DNA from: Escherichia phage JMPW1
Sequence record: NC_041874.1
Strand: one strand, 5' to 3'
Length of the DNA: 49,628 bases
Under the pieces are notes generated by a model. That model did not search any database. It was given only the letters and a program-made list of their open reading frames with translations, and had not been told where the DNA came from. Positions 1,130-49,466 of the stretch are shown here, in pieces. Position 1 is the first letter of the stretch; each line of letters starts with the position of its first letter. A program made the translations under genes and the position numbers.

Positions 1130-1324
1130 ATGGAAACGCAAATTGACGTAGTGGTTGTTCAGCGAGACTCAACTCATGAAAAGGGTCTGTTTAAGAAGGG
1201 AACGGAAATCACGATCGACCTTGAGGATATGGTTGCTTATCACTCTGGACTTACCTGGAACGTGGTGCGCGTAGGCAGCGACTATAAACTCAAAGGCTTT
1301 AACACTTACTTTGCAGAGGCTTAA
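1130..1324 (+). CDS. hypothetical early protein (64 aa)
   Basis: ORF directly downstream of promoter cassette 1056-1098; GAGAAAACGAAG leader. Confidence 0.55.
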   Translation: METQIDVVVVQRDSTHEKGLFKKGTEITIDLEDMVAYHSGLTWNVVRVGSDYKLKGFNTYFAEA

Positions 1325-2626: not shown

Positions 2627-2818
2627 ATGGCTGATTTTATGCACCAAATGATTGCAGTATTCAAAGGTAGTGATGACCAGGAGGTGAAAGAGTGCTTTAC
2701 TGTAGACAAGCCTTATAGCGCATCGCTAACCAGCTTCGGGAATATCTCATTGCTTGATGATAACGGCGACCCCTGGGTATTCGACGAAGACACTGATTGC
2801 TTCGAAATTAAAGAATAG
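2627..2818 (+). CDS. hypothetical acidic protein (63 aa)
   Basis: ORF track; D/E-rich; TAG stop lies inside next palindrome. Confidence 0.5.
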   Translation: MADFMHQMIAVFKGSDDQEVKECFTVDKPYSASLTSFGNISLLDDNGDPWVFDEDTDCFEIKE

Positions 2819-2889: not shown

Positions 2890-3378
2890 ATGAAAATCAA
2901 ATTGCTTTGCACTGGCGGTTACAAGGGCTTTACTCGCGACCTGGAAGCGGATCCTATCGTGATTGATGCGGTGAAGTGTGATGATAGCCTCGGCGGCTAC
3001 CGCGTGAAGGTTGACGACCTGGTGAAAGCTGGCGTGTACGATCTGGGCTATGGACTTTCGGTTAGCCCGGTAGTTGGTCCGGCAGACTTCAACGAGAAGG
3101 ATGGAACGATGTTCTTCTTCGAATGGGAAGTCCAGGCAAATCCTAAGCCGCGCAAGGTTCGTCTTCTCAGTAATGGCGGCTACCCGATGCGTCCAGGTTA
3201 TGAGAATCGCACATTCCCGGTTATCGTTGACTTTGAAGAAATCACCGCACACTTAGCTTATATCAACGGTGAACAGCTTCATGCTGTTGGATTCGTGGGA
3301 TGTATGAATCAAGAGGCGCTATGCTTCTTCCATTGTAAAGCCGAGCCGTTCGATATTGAGTGCGAGTTAGTATACTAA
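2890..3378 (+). CDS. hypothetical protein with internal tandem duplication (162 aa)
   Basis: Follows cassette 2816-2858. Repeats KIKLLCTGGYKGF...PIVIDAV and KVRLLSNGGYPMRPGY...PVIVDFE. Confidence 0.6.
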   Translation: MKIKLLCTGGYKGFTRDLEADPIVIDAVKCDDSLGGYRVKVDDLVKAGVYDLGYGLSVSPVVGPADFNEKDGTMFFFEWEVQANPKPRKVRLLSNGGYPMRPGYENRTFPVIVDFEEITAHLAYINGEQLHAVGFVGCMNQEALCFFHCKAEPFDIECELVY

Positions 3379-3449: not shown

Positions 3450-3956
3450 ATGTTAAAATTAGAAGACGTAAAATTCCCGATTAAATTTATCAGCCTAGGT
3501 TGCGGTGAAATTACATTCACCAGTGAAGATAAAGGCAAGTGGGACAATGATAAAATGTCTCAGCTTAAGTTGGATTGGTTTATCAATCGGCACAATGAAG
3601 TAAATCCTGAAAACTCAGCCAAGAAGGATTACCATTACATTATTAGTGGTAGTCAGGATGCGTACGAAAAGTATGATGGTTGGAAAATTGTTCGATCAAT
3701 CTTCCACCCCGCAAAGCCAGAAATTAAACCGATGTTACAATGCGCTCAGATCGAGAACATTCCATTGAGCGCGACGCTAAAAGGAGTGCAGCTTGATGAT
3801 AAATCCTGGCTTGAAATAACCGCCACGCCGAAAACTATTGAAGTGCACGACGATATCGTCACTCTTCTATTGCATTACGGCAGCTTTAAGCACAAAGCGG
3901 TATCAGGTGAAATCAGCATTAAGCGCGGAACACTTGTGCGCTATGAGGTGAAATAA
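3450..3956 (+). CDS. hypothetical early protein (168 aa)
   Basis: Follows cassette 3377-3419; AAGAGGAAAGCATC-ATG. Confidence 0.6.
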   Translation: MLKLEDVKFPIKFISLGCGEITFTSEDKGKWDNDKMSQLKLDWFINRHNEVNPENSAKKDYHYIISGSQDAYEKYDGWKIVRSIFHPAKPEIKPMLQCAQIENIPLSATLKGVQLDDKSWLEITATPKTIEVHDDIVTLLLHYGSFKHKAVSGEISIKRGTLVRYEVK

Positions 3957-4030: not shown

Positions 4031-4102
4031 AACAAGGTACGGGAAGTAATTGCAGAGAATAAGCCGTTCGGATATGAAGTAAAAACGATGTGCGTTAAAC
4101 GA

Positions 4103-4145
4103 TAGCACGAATTGCTAAACCTTCCGCAAGGCCATTTGATATAGT
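4103..4145 (+). promoter_or_regulatory. palindrome-promoter cassette
   Basis: TAGCAcgaatTGCTA, 22 nt, TGaTATAGT 4140-4145; hairpin AAGGCCA/TGGCCTT. Confidence 0.6.
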
Positions 4146-4185
4146 GGCCTTATTGAAGCAAGGCAACCAATCAGAGGAATCAGCT

Positions 4186-4392
4186 ATGGCTACACGACTA
4201 ACTCAGTGGCAGATTTACGACAAGGCCTCACGCCTTCGTGAATCGCTTCGCGGACTGACGCCGAATGACCGAATGGAGATTATCGGGCACGCATTGCACG
4301 AACTAACATCTCAGGACGTAATCTATCATTCATGCGGCAATAAATTCTGGAACGTGACATTCGAGGTAAAGAAAGATGAGCAAAACTCATAA
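4186..4392 (+). CDS. hypothetical early protein (68 aa)
   Basis: ATG after conserved leader AACCAATCAGAGGAATCAGCT. The GTG 4144 start in the ORF track lies inside the -10 element. Confidence 0.5.
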   Translation: MATRLTQWQIYDKASRLRESLRGLTPNDRMEIIGHALHELTSQDVIYHSCGNKFWNVTFEVKKDEQNS

Positions 4393-4663
4393 GTTAAAAA
4401 TCGCCCCGATACATTTCATTGGTGTAATGAACGGAACCAAAACGGCAGAGTTCCGCATCAATGACCGCAACTTCCAGGTTGGTGATATCCTTGAGCTACG
4501 CGAGTTCGATCGTGACGACTTTACCGGGTGGGAAGTTCACGCCAGGGTGTCCGATGTTACAGACGTGACGCCATACATCAATCGCGGTTATGACGAGCAA
4601 GAATGCGACTTCACGCAATACGTGATGTTATCAATCAAGCCTTACAGGAAGGTTAGACCATGA
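4376..4663 (+). CDS. DUF3850 / ASCH (PUA-like) domain protein
   Basis: HKLKIAPIHFIGVMNGTKTAEFRINDRNFQVGDILELREF matches my memory of the DUF3850 N-terminal signature. Confidence 0.6.
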   Translation: MSKTHKLKIAPIHFIGVMNGTKTAEFRINDRNFQVGDILELREFDRDDFTGWEVHARVSDVTDVTPYINRGYDEQECDFTQYVMLSIKPYRKVRP

Positions 4664-5298
4664 AATTTGAGTGCGTATCAAGTAGCGGATCTGGTTTTAA
4701 GTGGGGAAAAACTTACAAAGGTGTTCGCGTAAATGATGACAGCTTCATCATTACTGATGAGAACGGTTGCAACGTGAACGTTGTACGGCGTCACGAATAT
4801 CAGGAAATTTTCCTGCCTTATGGCGGTAGCTCAAAATATATCTTCCATCGAATCGTGGATGGTGTTAAATTTAACGACGTAATCGAAGCAATCAACCAAC
4901 TGCATAATAAAGAGGTAAAATTTATGAAATTCGAATGTATCAGCGACAACACTAAAAAATTTACCGTTGGAAAAATTTACAACGTTCCTTCTGAGCACGC
5001 TAAGCACACTTTAGCGCTGACCGACGACACAGGCTGCCAACGCATTGCAACCGTGACGCACAATGGCGAAGGTCTTCGCTGGAACAGCGGCGGCACTAAG
5101 TTCGCAACTTTCGGTAAGAAGCGCAAGCGCAATTTCCGCGTCAACGGCAAGATCAACACCAGCAAGATTAGCAACGTCAAGCCTATTAATGTTGACCACA
5201 AGCCAGAGCTTGATCTTAAAGGCAAGGTGGATATTCCTGATATGGCTTTAGCGATCCTTATTCTTGTTGCTCTAATTTCTATCATGCTCATCATGTAA
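4660..5298 (+). CDS. membrane-anchored protein with two tandem MKFEC mini-domains
   Basis: Repeat 1 starts MKFECVSSSGSGFKWGKTY and repeat 2 MKFECISDNTKKFTVGKIY. Repeat 2 keeps its own AAGAGG-ATG at 4909-4926. C-terminal TM helix MALAILILVALISIMLIM. Confidence 0.6.
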   Translation: MKFECVSSSGSGFKWGKTYKGVRVNDDSFIITDENGCNVNVVRRHEYQEIFLPYGGSSKYIFHRIVDGVKFNDVIEAINQLHNKEVKFMKFECISDNTKKFTVGKIYNVPSEHAKHTLALTDDTGCQRIATVTHNGEGLRWNSGGTKFATFGKKRKRNFRVNGKINTSKISNVKPINVDHKPELDLKGKVDIPDMALAILILVALISIMLIM

Positions 5299-5305
5299 TT
5301 TTAAC

Positions 5306-5339
5306 GGGGAATTGGCTCTGAGCGGTTCCCCTTTCTTTT
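5306..5339 (+). terminator. intrinsic terminator fused to SD
   Basis: GGGGAA...TTCCCC stem then TTTCTTTTGGAG. Confidence 0.55.
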
Positions 5340-5351
5340 GGAGAAAACACT

Positions 5352-5462
5352 ATGCCAGACTTTTCTAACTGGAATAACGAGCCGCCATCATTTCAGGAGT
5401 TGCTATTCTGCCTCCTGGTCCTGACATTATCTCTTAAGGGTGTTTTATGGCTACTATCATAA
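5352..5462 (+). CDS. possible 36-aa membrane peptide
   Basis: GGAG SD fused to terminator T-run; MPDFSNWNNEPPSFQELLFCLLVLTLSLKGVLWLLS; overlaps next gene by 16 nt. Confidence 0.3.
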   Translation: MPDFSNWNNEPPSFQELLFCLLVLTLSLKGVLWLLS

Positions 5463-6252: not shown

Positions 6253-6864
6253 ATGGATAAAATTACCATTTGGGGCCAGACAATCAACCTGTTTCTCGGC
6301 ACGCGCCGCGTAGCAATCTTTGACTTTGATGGAACACTTAGCGATGGATCTGGTCGACTTCACCTGCTACCTACAAAGGATTTGCACTTAACTGAAAGCT
6401 GGTCCGAGTTTAACCGCGCGGCAATATTTGACAACCCTATCCAAAGCACGATCGATGTGATGAACTCTATGTATGCCGCTGGTCATCATGTGATCATTTT
6501 AACCGGGCGAAGTGATGAGGTGCGTTACGCATCTGAGTTGTGGCTTAAGCATCACGGCGCTCGATATGATTACCTGATTATGCGACCATACACCGATAAC
6601 CGGAAAGACACAGTAATGAAAGAAGAGGCGGTGCGCGCGATCGGCATTGATAACATTCTGGCGGCCTGGGATGACTCACCGCAAATTATTCCATTATTCC
6701 GCTCACTTGGAATAACCACTTACGCTGTAGTTGACTATGGCGATAAAGTTCACGATCATTTAAAATCTCACGGGGTAGATGAGGTTTGCAATCATGAACC
6801 ATCTGAGCCGCTACCGCCATTTGGTGAGAAAATTTGCATTAAGTGCAAGGAGTTATTGAAGTGA
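6253..6864 (+). CDS. HAD-family polynucleotide 3'-phosphatase-like protein (T4 Pnkp C-terminal-domain type)
   Basis: DFDGTL motif I, ILTGR motif, RKDTVMKEEAV and WDDSPQIIPLFRSLGI. These resemble T4 Pnkp phosphatase-domain blocks (RKDDVVKEE, IDDRTQVVEMW) as I remember them. Confidence 0.75.
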   Translation: MDKITIWGQTINLFLGTRRVAIFDFDGTLSDGSGRLHLLPTKDLHLTESWSEFNRAAIFDNPIQSTIDVMNSMYAAGHHVIILTGRSDEVRYASELWLKHHGARYDYLIMRPYTDNRKDTVMKEEAVRAIGIDNILAAWDDSPQIIPLFRSLGITTYAVVDYGDKVHDHLKSHGVDEVCNHEPSEPLPPFGEKICIKCKELLK

Positions 6865-8168: not shown

Positions 8169-8398
8169 TGTTTGGTTTAAGTGAAGCGGAATGGAACGTG
8201 GTAAAGCGCGCGGCGAAGGAATTGAATAAATTCGTTAGCGGAATGAAGAAAGAAGATCGCAAAAACGAAAAGATTATGATTGATGTGATCTCAACTCATC
8301 ACAAAAAGGTTGAGCTACTCATCGACCGCTACAAGTTTGTATGGACCGCCGGATATATTGCAGGGCGCGTAGGTAACAAAGAGGGTGATTACGAATAA
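8168..8398 (+). CDS. hypothetical protein (76 aa)
   Basis: TAATG overlap with upstream gene. Confidence 0.5.
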   Translation: MFGLSEAEWNVVKRAAKELNKFVSGMKKEDRKNEKIMIDVISTHHKKVELLIDRYKFVWTAGYIAGRVGNKEGDYE

Positions 8399-8601
8399 TG
8401 GCTAACTTACCGAAGAAAGGCGATCAGGTTCGATGTGTTACATCACGCAATGGTGATGCTTTCTCAGCGGGATGCTTGTATGACGTTGAAAAAGTAAGTA
8501 AAGCAAAGAGACTCGTATTTGTATACGGAGACGATGGAAATATTCATGAGATTGACTACCCGCAGGATATTACTAATGGCCAATTTGAAATTAATGATTG
8601 A
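8398..8601 (+). CDS. hypothetical small beta-rich protein (67 aa), mini-domain family member
   Basis: TAATG overlap; KKGDQVRCVTSRNGDAFSAGCLYDV...GDDGNIHEI resembles the MKFEC-type mini-domains. Confidence 0.5.
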   Translation: MANLPKKGDQVRCVTSRNGDAFSAGCLYDVEKVSKAKRLVFVYGDDGNIHEIDYPQDITNGQFEIND

Positions 8602-8765: not shown

Positions 8766-8927
8766 ATGCAAAAAACTAAAGACGAATCAGTCAAAATTGA
8801 AATTAAAGTAACTCGCAACGGTGAAACCACTAGTTATAAAAAACGATTAAATCCTGGCGAGGCTGTTATTGGTCGCATTGCTGGCGTTATGATTAAGGCG
8901 CAGGAAGATGAAGCGATTCAAAGTTAA
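8766..8927 (+). CDS. possible hypothetical protein (53 aa)
   Basis: AAGAGGATTGCATA-ATG; below the ORF-track length cut-off; MQKTKDESVKIEIKVTRNGETTSYKK... Confidence 0.35.
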   Translation: MQKTKDESVKIEIKVTRNGETTSYKKRLNPGEAVIGRIAGVMIKAQEDEAIQS

Positions 8928-42398: not shown

Positions 42399-42575
42399 AT
42401 GAAGCTAGTTAAGTGCATCCGAAATGATTCCAAAACGCTTCCATTCCGCGTAAATCAGATCTATAGTGTTGGTTATGATTTCGGTGGTGGATTATTTGAG
42501 GTTTACGACGGGAGAGGCTCGGCAATCCATGTTCCTCTGAACGGTCACTACCTGGAATTTATTGAGATAGATTAA
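42399..42575 (+). CDS. hypothetical 58-aa mini-domain protein
   Basis: Below the ORF-track cut-off; follows cassette 42327-42369; MKLVKCIRNDSKTLPFRVNQIYSV... resembles MKFEC repeats; followed by terminator. Confidence 0.45.
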   Translation: MKLVKCIRNDSKTLPFRVNQIYSVGYDFGGGLFEVYDGRGSAIHVPLNGHYLEFIEID

Positions 42576-45976: not shown

Positions 45977-46393
45977 TTATAAGTATTTGGCCTCAAAGGT
46001 TGTGCCATCTGCGATACTAAAACCGATCTCTTCGCGAAATAATGTCCAACGGCATCCGTCCTCATCAAAGATGTAACCAGCTACGCCGCCGAGAGCGCGA
46101 CCGCTTTCTACCTGGTAACGCTTTCCAACTTTGAATGATTTTTTCATCGGGTTGCGATGGTCAAGTCCGGTGCACTTTAGCGTCTTTGTTTTCAACTCGG
46201 TGAATTTCGCGAAGAAGATTTCATCAGTTCCGTGAATCTGTAATTCATCATGCTTTTCAAGTTTTAAATACTTCCCGCATTTTAGTTTTACTTCGCGAGT
46301 ACCATCATAGCGCTCACGACCTTTATACAAATTGTTTACTTCGAATCCTGTGATCTTGTCTGCGGAAGTGCATTTCAGTTTGATGGATTTCAT
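45977..46393 (-). CDS. hypothetical protein with two K-x-KC mini-domains (138 aa)
   Basis: MKSIKLKCTSADKITGFEVNNLYKG and KTKTLKCTGLD...FKVGKRYQV...DEDGC repeats; AACCAATCAGGAG leader. Confidence 0.55.
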   Translation of the reverse strand: MKSIKLKCTSADKITGFEVNNLYKGRERYDGTREVKLKCGKYLKLEKHDELQIHGTDEIFFAKFTELKTKTLKCTGLDHRNPMKKSFKVGKRYQVESGRALGGVAGYIFDEDGCRWTLFREEIGFSIADGTTFEAKYL

Positions 46394-46988: not shown

Positions 46989-47132
46989 TCAGTACTCAGA
47001 AATTACTTTGCACTCTTTGATTGTTCCACCCAAAACTACTTTCTGCATCATTGCTTTTTGTTGGCTATCGTAAACGCGAACATTTTTTACTCTGTTAAAT
47101 TTGCCAGTATAGAAGGTGTGAATATAAATCAT
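46989..47132 (-). CDS. possible hypothetical protein (47 aa)
   Basis: ATGA overlap with upstream stop; fills an otherwise empty 140-nt gap; its TGA abuts palindrome 46974-46988. Confidence 0.35.
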   Translation of the reverse strand: MIYIHTFYTGKFNRVKNVRVYDSQQKAMMQKVVLGGTIKECKVISEY

Positions 47133-47452
47133 TTTTTACCGTCCCACGTTTGATATGCCGTAACCAGGTTAATGCTGTGGTCGAACTCGTCAACGCTAAG
47201 CGATCCGATTCTAACAAGCTCTTTGTCGTGCTTAATATCAATCATCCGGCTATATGGATGGCCTGGCACATACTTGAACAGTCGTTTGCTGTCGGCAATG
47301 TCTGCGTTGATTCCGTAGAATCGGCCTACCGCCGCCTTAACGCGCTCCATGATGTTTTTTTCGTGGATTGCCGCCGCGTTATTTAGTGCCGCAACCGTGC
47401 TTCCGTTAATCTTCGGTGACTTCGTTGTGATTTTGTAAGTGTGGTTCATCAT
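47129..47452 (-). CDS. hypothetical protein (about 107 aa), paralog of 47659-48030
   Basis: AGGGGG SD before ATGATG at 47452/47449; ERVKAAVGRFYGINAD block shared with EKAVRAALTAYYGVSD. Confidence 0.5.
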   Translation of the reverse strand: MMNHTYKITTKSPKINGSTVAALNNAAAIHEKNIMERVKAAVGRFYGINADIADSKRLFKYVPGHPYSRMIDIKHDKELVRIGSLSVDEFDHSINLVTAYQTWDGKK

Positions 47453-47465
47453 TCCCCCTAACCAG

Positions 47466-47684
47466 TCAGGATAGCTTTCGCGCTTCATCAATGATAACAG
47501 GCTCAAGGCGTTCAAGTCGAACGCGGAACGAGTTCATAAATCCTTCGTTGTTCTTCAGTAGTTCGAATGCGTCTGTAGCTTCAATGGCGCTATTCCCCAT
47601 GTAGGCAATTACTTTTTTCTGAGTCTTACGTGAGATCGCCACTACGCGGTAAATATTATCACTCATACAATGCCTCTTTAACAC
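47466..47684 (-). CDS. hypothetical protein (72 aa)
   Basis: ORF track; overlaps upstream gene end by 26 nt. Confidence 0.45.
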   Translation of the reverse strand: MLKRHCMSDNIYRVVAISRKTQKKVIAYMGNSAIEATDAFELLKNNEGFMNSFRVRLERLEPVIIDEARKLS

Positions 47685-48030
47685 GATCCGCTACACATGA
47701 GTTAACGGTGATTGAATAGTTAGCCACGCCCCATAATGCAATATTGCCAAGCTCGGTACGCATTGATGGATTGTTTAGCTGAATGATTGTCTCGCCAGTA
47801 TCTTTATCGACGAAGCGAGACACGCCAGAATGGTCCACCACGCGCGTTACTCGGTTCACGCACTCCATTGCATCACTTACACCATAATAGGCGGTTAGGG
47901 CGGCTCTCACGGCCTTCTCTTGCTTGTTGTAAATCTTGCGAGCGATGTTCTCGATCGCTACGCTTTCTTTCTCGTCAGTCTGGATTGCCGTGCTGGCTGA
48001 GAAGTCCAGATCTGTGAACTGCTTAAACAT
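47659..48030 (-). CDS. hypothetical protein (123 aa), paralog of 47129-47452
   Basis: ACGAGGAAATAATC-ATG after cassette 48062-48104. Confidence 0.5.
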   Translation of the reverse strand: MFKQFTDLDFSASTAIQTDEKESVAIENIARKIYNKQEKAVRAALTAYYGVSDAMECVNRVTRVVDHSGVSRFVDKDTGETIIQLNNPSMRTELGNIALWGVANYSITVNSCVADRVKEALYE

Positions 48031-48061
48031 GATTATTTCCTCGTTTGCTGCTGATGGGATG

Positions 48062-48104
48062 ACTATACCAGCCATCCCGGATGCGCGTTTAGCAAAAAGT
48101 GCTA
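48062..48104 (-). promoter_or_regulatory. palindrome-promoter cassette
   Basis: Minus strand: TAGCActtttTGCTA, 22 nt, TGgTATAGT (48067-48062); hairpin GGGATG/CATCCC. Confidence 0.6.
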
Positions 48105-48568: not shown

Positions 48569-49257
48569 TTTGCGATCGCTTTGAAAAATCCACGAGGAGA
48601 TAAGGAACGTATCAGCTTCGTTTTGGCAGACTTGCCGCCCAGCTTGTTTTGCTGTGCAGAGTACCCGTCATGCAGGTTTACAGGCTTCCTTTCTGGCATG
48701 ACAAAGTCGTCCGAAGTCCAAAGACAAGTTTTCTTCGGGTAAGCATCGCGCGGCGCAATATACATCGGGAACCAGGGGTGTGCGTCATTCTCAGGAAGAT
48801 AGCCGCCATACTCCCAGGGATTGAAAGTGTGGTCAGCCTTTCGCCAGGCTGATGACAGGACGCTAACCGGATTCTCAATGATGTAAGTCACACCCAGGCT
48901 ATCACCGATGTTCGCGGCAATCCGGGCGGTGGCAACAGCTTTCTCCTGGAATAGCGGATCACGTTTACGCTTGCTGGCAAAGTGTCGAGCACCACTAACG
49001 GCCAGGTCAGTGCACGGCGGGAAGGCCATAATGAAATCCGGCTTGCCATACACACCCGCGATCGCATCACGTTCGAACGTTTCATCAATGAACACGTTCA
49101 CATACTCAATGTTGGGATGCTCTACCCGGGCATTGTACTTTGCATAATCTCCGTGATCGGCTCCGTCAAAGTTGAAGCACATCACTTTATGACCTTGCTT
49201 TGCCAGTTCATGACCAGCCAGGCCCGAGCCGTCGAATAGTGACCAGATTAATTTCAT
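48553..49257 (-). CDS. DNA (cytosine-5)-methyltransferase, compact form
   Basis: Motif I LFDGSG, motif IV FPPCTDLAVSG (PC), motif VI IIENPV. The 3' end encodes palindrome 48554-48568. Confidence 0.8.
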   Translation of the reverse strand: MKLIWSLFDGSGLAGHELAKQGHKVMCFNFDGADHGDYAKYNARVEHPNIEYVNVFIDETFERDAIAGVYGKPDFIMAFPPCTDLAVSGARHFASKRKRDPLFQEKAVATARIAANIGDSLGVTYIIENPVSVLSSAWRKADHTFNPWEYGGYLPENDAHPWFPMYIAPRDAYPKKTCLWTSDDFVMPERKPVNLHDGYSAQQNKLGGKSAKTKLIRSLSPRGFFKAIANSTFC

Positions 49258-49466
49258 TTCGTTACCTCCTGGAAAACAGTTTGTCCGCTATTGGTCAGGA
49301 AGCGCCCGATCTTATTCATTGACCGGAACACGCCGATCTGATTCTGATGATTGTCAGTCGCGAAGTAACCGCCATCAATAAGGTAGATTTCATACACTGA
49401 TTGATTCGTGAAGCTGTCAGTGCTGACGCTAACACATCGTACGGTACATTCAAATTCTGGTTCCAT
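49254..49466 (-). CDS. hypothetical protein (70 aa), first gene of leftward early operon
   Basis: AACCAATCAGAGGACTCAGGCA-ATG after cassette 49499-49542. Confidence 0.5.
   Translation of the reverse strand: MEPEFECTVRCVSVSTDSFTNQSVYEIYLIDGGYFATDNHQNQIGVFRSMNKIGRFLTNSGQTVFQEVTK

Follow-up and report, generated by a model that had tools for sequence, protein, structure and literature searches.

Introduction

Direct binding by a bacterial immune sensor has been shown for few phage proteins; Gp54 of phage Bas11 is one of them, and its fold has been described as very rare (PMC11578894). It is a six-stranded barrel of about 64 residues with a prominent, long loop between strands 1 and 2 (Protein Data Bank (PDB) entries 9axb and 9erv; Pfam PF25180, "Phage antiviral trigger protein Gp54"), is non-essential, and has no known function (PMC11578894). 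It binds the pseudo-zinc-finger of CapRelSJ46 directly with a dissociation constant of 800 nM, partly unfolding into a hybrid sheet, and several close Gp54 homologues do not trigger CapRelSJ46 (PMC11578894). A second family of small phage proteins, DUF7244 (Pfam PF23896), has been called a standalone SH3 domain of the SH3 clan; an auxiliary role in lysis has been proposed for it, and in 188 of 522 Drexlerviridae it adjoins the lysis cassette (Eremina et al. 2026, PMC13164509). That study mentions neither paralogues nor Gp54. Here we describe a set of small modules dispersed over the 49,628-nt sequence of Escherichia phage JMPW1 (NC_041874.1; this whole stretch is hereafter called the window), starting from the open reading frame (ORF) at 4660-5298, whose product we call protein A. 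We propose that eight modules of ~60 residues with a predicted Gp54-like fold probably form a family of early protein binders, and that in gene A two of them are fused, tethered to the membrane and produced as two isoforms.

Results

Protein A contains two modules and a predicted tail anchor

Protein A, which phrog_10580 matches over its full length, carries two copies of one module, A1 and A2 (Table 1). The copies are 29% identical over 58 residues, with a Smith-Waterman z of 9.1 and a score reached by none of 500 shuffles. Comparison with hhalign gave 95% probability and a score of 41, and hidden Markov models (HMMs) built from the orthologues of each copy found the other in a six-frame database of the window (E-values of 2e-4 and 2e-3). 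An AlphaFold2 model of A built on 33 homologues has two six-strand domains, at residues 2-65 and 88-151 (the A1 strands being 2-8, 18-23, 28-32, 38-45, 50-53 and 60-65), a helix at 71-82, a low-confidence stretch at 153-191 and a helix at 192-211. The two modules that an earlier, sequence-only reading of this DNA had seen in the ORF are thus borne out.

The same reading had proposed a C-terminal membrane anchor, and this also stands: residues 196-212 (ALAILILVALISIMLIM) reach a Kyte-Doolittle value of 3.18, compared with 0.54 for the best segment elsewhere in A, and nothing lies beyond them. With one C-terminal hydrophobic helix and no N-terminal signal, A has the predicted layout of a tail-anchored inner-membrane protein. 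Residues 154-193 contain 11 K/R and 4 D/E. Because this linker is basic and no residues follow the anchor, the positive-inside rule predicts barrels that sit at the inner membrane and face the cytoplasm. The anchor is retained in the orthologues of phage T1, IME347 and an SRT8-like phage.

The modules belong to a dispersed superfamily

Comparisons of single sequences gave z values of at most 4.2, except for A1-A2 and for A2-B2 (5.6). HMMs built on A1 or A2 alone found only the sister copy and protein F in the window (E = 0.006 for F), with B and D at E-values of 0.2-0.4 and C not found. Because single sequences and narrow models were too weak, we built broader family alignments from 184 loci, comprising 2.86 Mb of Drexlerviridae DNA. 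These were gathered with terminase and helicase alignments as anchors, since a locus search with a single protein had returned only close relatives.

We ran hhalign all against all on 11 candidate modules and, from the same genomes, 23 further small-ORF families. The 506 control pairs scored no higher than 24.2, with the 95th percentile close to 15, and 100 column-shuffled decoys scored at most 19.9. Ten of the 55 candidate pairs exceeded the control maximum. Nine of them fall among the seven modules A1, A2, B1, B2, C, D and G, with scores of 25-38 that include A-C (37.9), A-G (35.4), A-D (30.8), B2-G (29.2), B1-C (29.1), D-G (28.0), A2-B2 (25.8) and A1-C (25.1); the tenth is E1-E2, an internal repeat described below. 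Several more candidate pairs scored 20-24. The likeness between scattered ORFs on which the sequence-only reading had staked its family is therefore significant, nine module pairs beating every control drawn from real proteins.

We then pooled 40 representatives into one HMM and searched an 869-segment database, omitting one family per test. Every time, the window member of the omitted family was the first non-training hit (E-values: A 9.6e-13, B 3.8e-9, C 1.3e-4, G 2.9e-4, D 2.9e-3), and reversed decoys gave E-values of 0.045-2.7. Judged by these profile comparisons, A1, A2, B1, B2, C, D and G constitute one superfamily. Protein F, which was never in the training set, was found by the pooled model at an E-value of 1.6e-4 (next window hit 0.22), and its hhalign score was 22.9, compared with at most 12.7 for 17 controls. 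F is probably an eighth module, which would give eight in six genes.

The core that the modules share comprises a strand 1 motif, [KR]-x-[KR]-C, a strand 2 motif, F-x-x-G-x-x-Y, and a turn of the form (V/I)-x-D-[DE]-x-G. The earlier motif had ended in D-D/E-x-GC; its D-[DE]-x-G turn held, and its final C is not conserved in the A family, where the sequence is mostly TDDTGR. The earlier list of copies was right about the two modules of B and the single modules of C and D. It missed G and F, and it counted the ORF at 2890-3378 as a possible member, which we rejected: its best score against any module was 14.9, and the only similarity it showed was its own internal repeat. Strict iterative searches (inclusion E-value <1e-5) merged no families except A1 with A2.

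The families have a patchy, accessory distribution, with homologue counts of 66 for A, 822 for B, 277 for C, 101 for D, 62 for G and 23 for F in 50,697 phage records. Many Drexlerviridae phages have only the B2 half of B, which is also the better conserved half (mean pairwise identity 0.79, compared with 0.43 for B1).

Three further loci came up in these comparisons. The plus-strand ORF at 2890-3378 (162 aa) contains an internal repeat (KIKLLCTGGY.../KVRLLSNGGY...; E1-E2 hhalign score 29.1), and some related phages have a single-repeat version of it (phrog_13367, 74 aa). The ORF at 8766-8927 was rejected because it scored 24.2 against B2 but only background against the pooled profile. On the minus strand, 47129-47515 and 47659-48075, which encode 128 and 138 aa and are separated by an ORF at 47466-47684, scored at the top of the control pairs (hhalign 24.1 over 113 columns); they may be another pair of diverged paralogues.

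The predicted fold of A and B is that of Gp54

Structure models were built without templates. The model of B (138 aa, 56 homologues) reached a predicted local distance difference test (pLDDT) score of 92.3 and a predicted template modelling score of 0.84. As modelled, A and B adopt the Gp54 fold: their modules are six-stranded small barrels that superpose on 9axb over nearly their full length, clearly better than on five-stranded SH3 domains. The guess of an SH3-like fold in the sequence-only reading is consistent with these predicted barrels. A Foldseek search of B against BFVD returned DUF7244 proteins at probability 1.0, plus many small uncharacterised phage proteins.

Like the members described here, Gp54 is a small Drexlerviridae protein, and an orthologue is encoded in the window itself (Table 1). 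It differs from them in being a single free domain, with neither tandem copies nor a membrane anchor. Modules A-G had no Pfam hit to PF25180, and PDB profile searches gave no sequence hit to 9axb. Since no module shows profile similarity to Gp54, the link is one of fold only.

The two-module gene appears to be an old duplication and fusion

Over region 4300-5400, the window is 100% identical to Enterobacteria phage vB_EcoS_IME167, Escherichia phage phi2013 and vB_Henu5_2; many other Tunavirus genomes (Drexlerviridae) share 87-95% identity with it there. The window is therefore in essence a complete T1-like genome. The 212-aa two-module form is kept in most Tunavirus genomes, down to 54-63% identity. 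In the outgroups IME347 (Badaguanvirus) and an SRT8-like phage, the gene encodes one module, a linker and a transmembrane segment, and its start aligns with M89 of A. The sequence for the last part of the linker in the window (...AACCAACTGCATAATAAAGAGG...ATG) is similar to the outgroup 5' leader (...ACCAAACGAAAGAGG...ATG), including its Shine-Dalgarno (SD) sequence. Because the outgroups have a single module, their leader resembles the linker, and the closest relative of A1 among all modules is A2, these data support a duplication in which the upstream copy would have been fused in frame through the old leader. The fusion is old: A1 and A2 share only 29% identity, and conservation of the two-module form extends across the genus. 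The sequence-only reading had described a recent tandem duplication fused by loss of a stop codon: the duplication and the fusion stand and the recent date does not, and loss of a stop codon is plausible as the fusion event, with no unfused intermediate found.

Three parts of this region have no counterpart in phage T1: the gene at 4186-4392, the ASCH gene and module A1 (locus L003, NC_005833 ~3540-3620, compared with window 4150-4925). The T1 junction joins the promoter-region motif and hairpin (window 4101-4151) to CAACCAACTG...GAGGTAAAATTTATG and puts them directly ahead of the SD-ATG that lies inside gene A of the window. We considered T1 as the ancestral single-module state and dropped this, because the junction fits instead the loss of ~740 bp from a two-module ancestor by deletion between CAACCAA microhomologies, a direction that we infer. 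Phage Chapo has a different N-terminal truncation of A.

Selection and conservation in A were computed from 10 distinct orthologous DNA sequences. The ratio of nonsynonymous to synonymous substitution rates (dN/dS) was 0.15 for A1, 0.04 for A2 and 0.32 for the tether and anchor. Mean pairwise identity of A1 among orthologues was 0.78, and 32 of 66 columns are invariant in A2, compared with 9 of 66 in A1. These values indicate that both barrels are maintained, the putatively ancestral A2 much more strictly, with A1 under purifying selection.

Gene A probably encodes two isoforms

Among phages, lambda S (S105/S107) and T7 gene 4 (4A/4B) each have an in-frame internal start and produce two isoforms. 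As in those genes, a strong in-frame SD-ATG within A would yield a full-length and an N-terminally shortened protein with a common C-terminus; unlike in those genes, the internal start of A would be an ancestral start left by a domain fusion. The sequence-only reading had already pointed to this site and was off by one in its start (4909) and its spacer (nine nucleotides); the SD sequence begins at 4910 and the spacer has eight nucleotides.

The site could be an unused relic of the fusion, so that only the 212-aa protein is made. The motif also encodes the conserved N-K-E-V-K-F-M of the linker and strand 1, so that constraint on the protein could partly explain its conservation, and ribosomes arriving from upstream could mask it as they pass through. 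However, synonymous positions are conserved too. The longest run of invariant third codon positions in A spans nine codons (82-90) and covers the SD sequence, spacer and ATG, compared with a third-position invariance of 0.425 across the whole gene, and the synonymous rate of codons 67-88 is 0.097, about five-fold lower than the ~0.5 elsewhere in the gene. The T1 orthologue ST68, a conserved protein of 124 aa, starts exactly at M89 and has no other start. In addition, a natural frameshift variant (P0190) terminates A1 early, and its A2 would depend on the internal start. A mere relic is therefore unlikely on the whole. The constraint on synonymous sites around the SD-ATG points to constraint at the nucleotide level and hence to two products, and gene A probably makes a two-barrel protein of 212 aa and a one-barrel protein of 124 aa.

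Relatives occur in other architectures

C matches DUF7244 over positions 1-57 of 57 at 97.5 bits (E = 4.6e-28; cut-off 27 bits), and all 36 of 36 C homologues carry PF23896. A and B stayed below the cut-off (17 and 16.3 bits), and D, G and F gave no hit to DUF7244. A, B1, D and G are linked to C by hhalign scores of 24-38, so that A, B, D, G and F appear to be related to DUF7244 at the superfamily level only. They also differ from it in lying elsewhere in the genome and in including tandem and membrane-anchored forms.

In an exhaustive profile search, proteins with 2-5 tandem modules matched both DUF7244 and DUF6501 (PF20111). The DUF6501 and tandem-module proteins, found in other genomes including metagenomes, share the motif MK-x-KC ... 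LTVGK-x-YEV ... DD-x-G with our modules, and the examples inspected differ from A in having no transmembrane anchor. Because such proteins occur elsewhere, tandem arrays appear to be a recurring architecture of the superfamily. Only short single-module and tandem-module hits were counted as relatives in this mixed-profile search. Giant proteins of 1,300-5,000 aa (P0182-P0184, P0188, P0192-P0198), in which 6-32 stretches of ~20-30 residues match the pooled profile, topped the list and were set aside, the matches probably being spurious and due to YD/RHS-like hairpin repeats.

Fusions to other domains were also seen. A PNKP-type phosphatase (HAD_PNKP) carries a C-terminal mini-barrel in 3 of 52 PNKP-phosphatase ORFs of related phages (loci L057 3943-4668, L058 3848-4570 and L065 3743-4549); the PNK of the window (6253-6864) has a Cys-rich tail instead (CNHEP...CIKCKELLK). 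In Tempevirinae, a protein of ~246 aa has an N-terminal mini-barrel followed by ~190 residues without a Pfam match (PHB17 gp19, locus L009 6173-6913; locus L046 6671-7423).

Neighbouring features

The small "early" ORFs of the window occupy two arms, the left at 1-9.4 kb (plus strand) and the right at 44-49.6 kb (largely minus strand). The start codon of A shares an ATGA with the stop codon of the DUF3850/ASCH gene ahead of it. The T1 annotation marks the site orthologous to the hairpin 3' of A as a rho-independent terminator. The single-module A gene of T1 and IME347 has the promoter-region motif and hairpin directly upstream.

The 19-bp motif, GATAGCACGAATTGCTAAA, has 10 copies with at most three mismatches in the window, compared with 0.02 expected, at 104 (-), 1793, 4101, 5648, 6168, 7541, 35263, 40337 and 42325 (+) and 46972 (-). 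The copies inspected are intergenic and oriented like the genes downstream. Downstream of the copy at 4101 come first the hairpin and next an SD-ATG. C has a copy ahead of it, as does the operon whose last gene is the 212-aa ORF. The motif is probably a T1-type promoter or regulatory element. An ORF called at 4144-4392 (+) begins at a GTG inside the hairpin; its true start is almost certainly the ATG at 4186 (MATRLTQW...), which has an AGAGGA SD sequence ahead of it, and relatives annotate the gene as a 207-bp coding sequence.

Table 1. Features of the window discussed in the text, with positions in the window.
Feature	Positions	Strand	Description
ORF A	4660-5298	+	212 aa; two predicted Gp54-like/DUF7244-like barrels, helical linker, basic linker, C-terminal tail anchor
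Module A1	4660-4857	+	aa 1-66; N-terminal, faster-evolving copy
Helical linker of A	4858-4923	+	aa 67-88; 3' end putatively the former 5' leader
Internal start of A	4910-4926	+	SD AAGAGG 4910-4915, 8-nt spacer, ATG 4924-4926 (M89)
Module A2	4924-5121	+	aa 89-154; putatively ancestral, highly conserved copy
Basic linker of A	5122-5244	+	predicted disordered (pLDDT <50 for 153-191)
C-terminal transmembrane tail anchor of A	5245-5295	+	predicted; aa 196-212, zero residues after
Terminator-like hairpin and T-run	5306-5341 (hairpin 5306-5331)	+	directly 3' of ORF A
19-bp promoter-region motif and hairpin	4101-4119, 4128-4151	+	at the head of the unit of gene 4186-4392, ASCH gene and A
Protein B	45977-46393	-	138 aa; modules B1 46193-46393 and B2 45980-46192; immediately upstream of the helicase gene
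Protein C	42399-42575	+	58 aa; full-length Pfam DUF7244; between exonuclease and holin genes
Protein D	8398-8601	+	67 aa; single module
Protein G	2627-2818	+	63 aa; single module
Protein F	49254-49466	-	70 aa; probable single module, weaker support; immediately upstream of a DNA methyltransferase gene
Gp54 orthologue	1130-1324	+	64 aa; Pfam PF25180 E 5e-36; PDB 9axb E 1.2e-13

Discussion

A proposed family of early protein-binding barrels

On balance, we consider it probable that the window encodes a family of eight Gp54-fold barrels that bind host or defence proteins early in infection, with A as a fused, membrane-tethered member made in two isoforms. Binding of cytoplasmic proteins in host takeover or counter-defence is the most likely role. 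The takeover or anti-defence interpretation of the sequence-only reading gains strength only by analogy, from the fold shared with Gp54, which is non-essential and binds a defence sensor. The ancestral A gene would have encoded one barrel and an anchor. Before the radiation of Tunavirus, a duplicate barrel would have been fused in frame upstream, turning the old leader into part of the helical linker, and the old SD-ATG would have been kept under nucleotide-level constraint, so that A gives two products. Early in infection, each paralogue may have a different target among host or defence proteins, bound in the manner of the beta-sheet augmentation of Gp54 on CapRelSJ46, and protein A may bind its target at the membrane. 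Core activity would then reside in the conserved C-terminal barrel A2, and the fast-evolving A1 may be an add-on that changes specificity.

Several points weigh against this proposal. The fold assignment covers the models of A and B only, and the second barrel of the A model has moderate confidence, with pLDDT of 55-76. The Gp54 family scored at background against every module in hhalign (at most 14.3), so the resemblance could reflect either very remote homology or convergence on a barrel, and being a defence trigger is not in itself a function. For the members themselves, Pfam and PHROGs gave only labels of "unknown function" and NCBIfam returned nothing; one weak PHROGs cross-hit was to phrog_14592, "virion structural protein". 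The statistics on A come from only 10 sequences, and use of the internal start in two-module phages is deduced from conservation. Finally, the enzyme-adjacent members and the PNKP-phosphatase fusions would also fit a role as enzyme accessories.

This last possibility, that the modules are accessory barrels that bind nucleic acids or recruit enzymes, much like Tudor, KOW or Sm domains, and serve neighbouring DNA and RNA enzymes, draws on the positions of several genes: A follows the ASCH/DUF3850 gene, labelled "RNA-binding", B and F directly precede the helicase and methyltransferase genes, and C follows the exonuclease gene. Besides the PNKP-phosphatase ORFs with a C-terminal module, a distant G homologue overlaps a PNK annotation in phage aalborv. 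However, adjacency says little in an enzyme-packed genome of ~80 genes, the partner genes vary and the neighbours are not conserved together, T1 keeping A2 without the ASCH gene. The membrane anchor of A fits poorly with a cofactor of nucleic-acid enzymes, and the modules matched no nucleic-acid-binding family. We therefore regard an accessory role of this kind as rather unlikely.

A function as SH3b-type cell-wall-binding or lysis accessory domains is suggested by the place of C between the exonuclease and holin genes and by the lysis-adjacent position of DUF7244, a member of the SH3 clan, in 188 of 522 Drexlerviridae (PMC13164509). Yet C is one of six paralogous genes, and the other five are scattered over both early arms, far from the lysis genes. 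C, whose sequence begins MKLVKCIRNDSK, has no signal peptide or transmembrane segment, and nor do B, D, G and F; the barrels of A are predicted to lie on the cytoplasmic side of its tail anchor. The best structural match, moreover, is Gp54, a cytoplasmic protein-binding barrel, and not an SH3b domain. A lysis function for the modules is thus improbable.

That the likeness among the scattered ORFs is due to chance or a generic beta-hairpin, with no family beyond A1 and A2, is in keeping with the weak scores of most single-sequence pairs and with the short Y-x-D-x-x-G-like stretch through which the pooled HMM also matches giant repeat proteins, but is very hard to reconcile with profile scores above all real-protein controls, the recovery of every omitted family, the one specific top hit shared by the independently predicted A and B structures and the match of DUF7244 structures to B at probability 1.0.

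Implications

The domain is already known as a DUF (DUF7244), and one structural relative (Gp54) has been solved. In the searchable literature, we found no unification of these families with the Gp54 fold, no per-genome copy number of the mini-barrels and no tail-anchored tandem form with a retained start; nothing relevant was found on DUF6501 or in later work on the function of Gp54.

The mini-barrel family gives the Gp54 family a context and supplies concrete candidate triggers or inhibitors of defence. Counting the Gp54 orthologue, there would be up to nine predicted Gp54-fold barrels per genome, in single, tandem, enzyme-fused and membrane-anchored forms, and the scattered paralogues call into question a reading of DUF7244 in terms of lysis only. 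The fused A gene offers a clean natural example of a domain fusion that kept the ancestral start, by which one gene may yield two isoforms. More tentatively, Gp54, DUF7244, DUF6501, A, B, D, G and F may all belong to one fast-diversifying superfamily of phage mini-barrels that serves as an arsenal of protein binders, a proposal that we find possible but doubtful. If it is true, each T1-like phage would carry up to nine barrels that each engage a different host or immune protein. Such barrels, including the membrane-tethered version with two isoforms, would act as inhibitors and, by counter-evolution, as triggers, and the paralogues would then be a ready list of candidate defence inhibitors and triggers.

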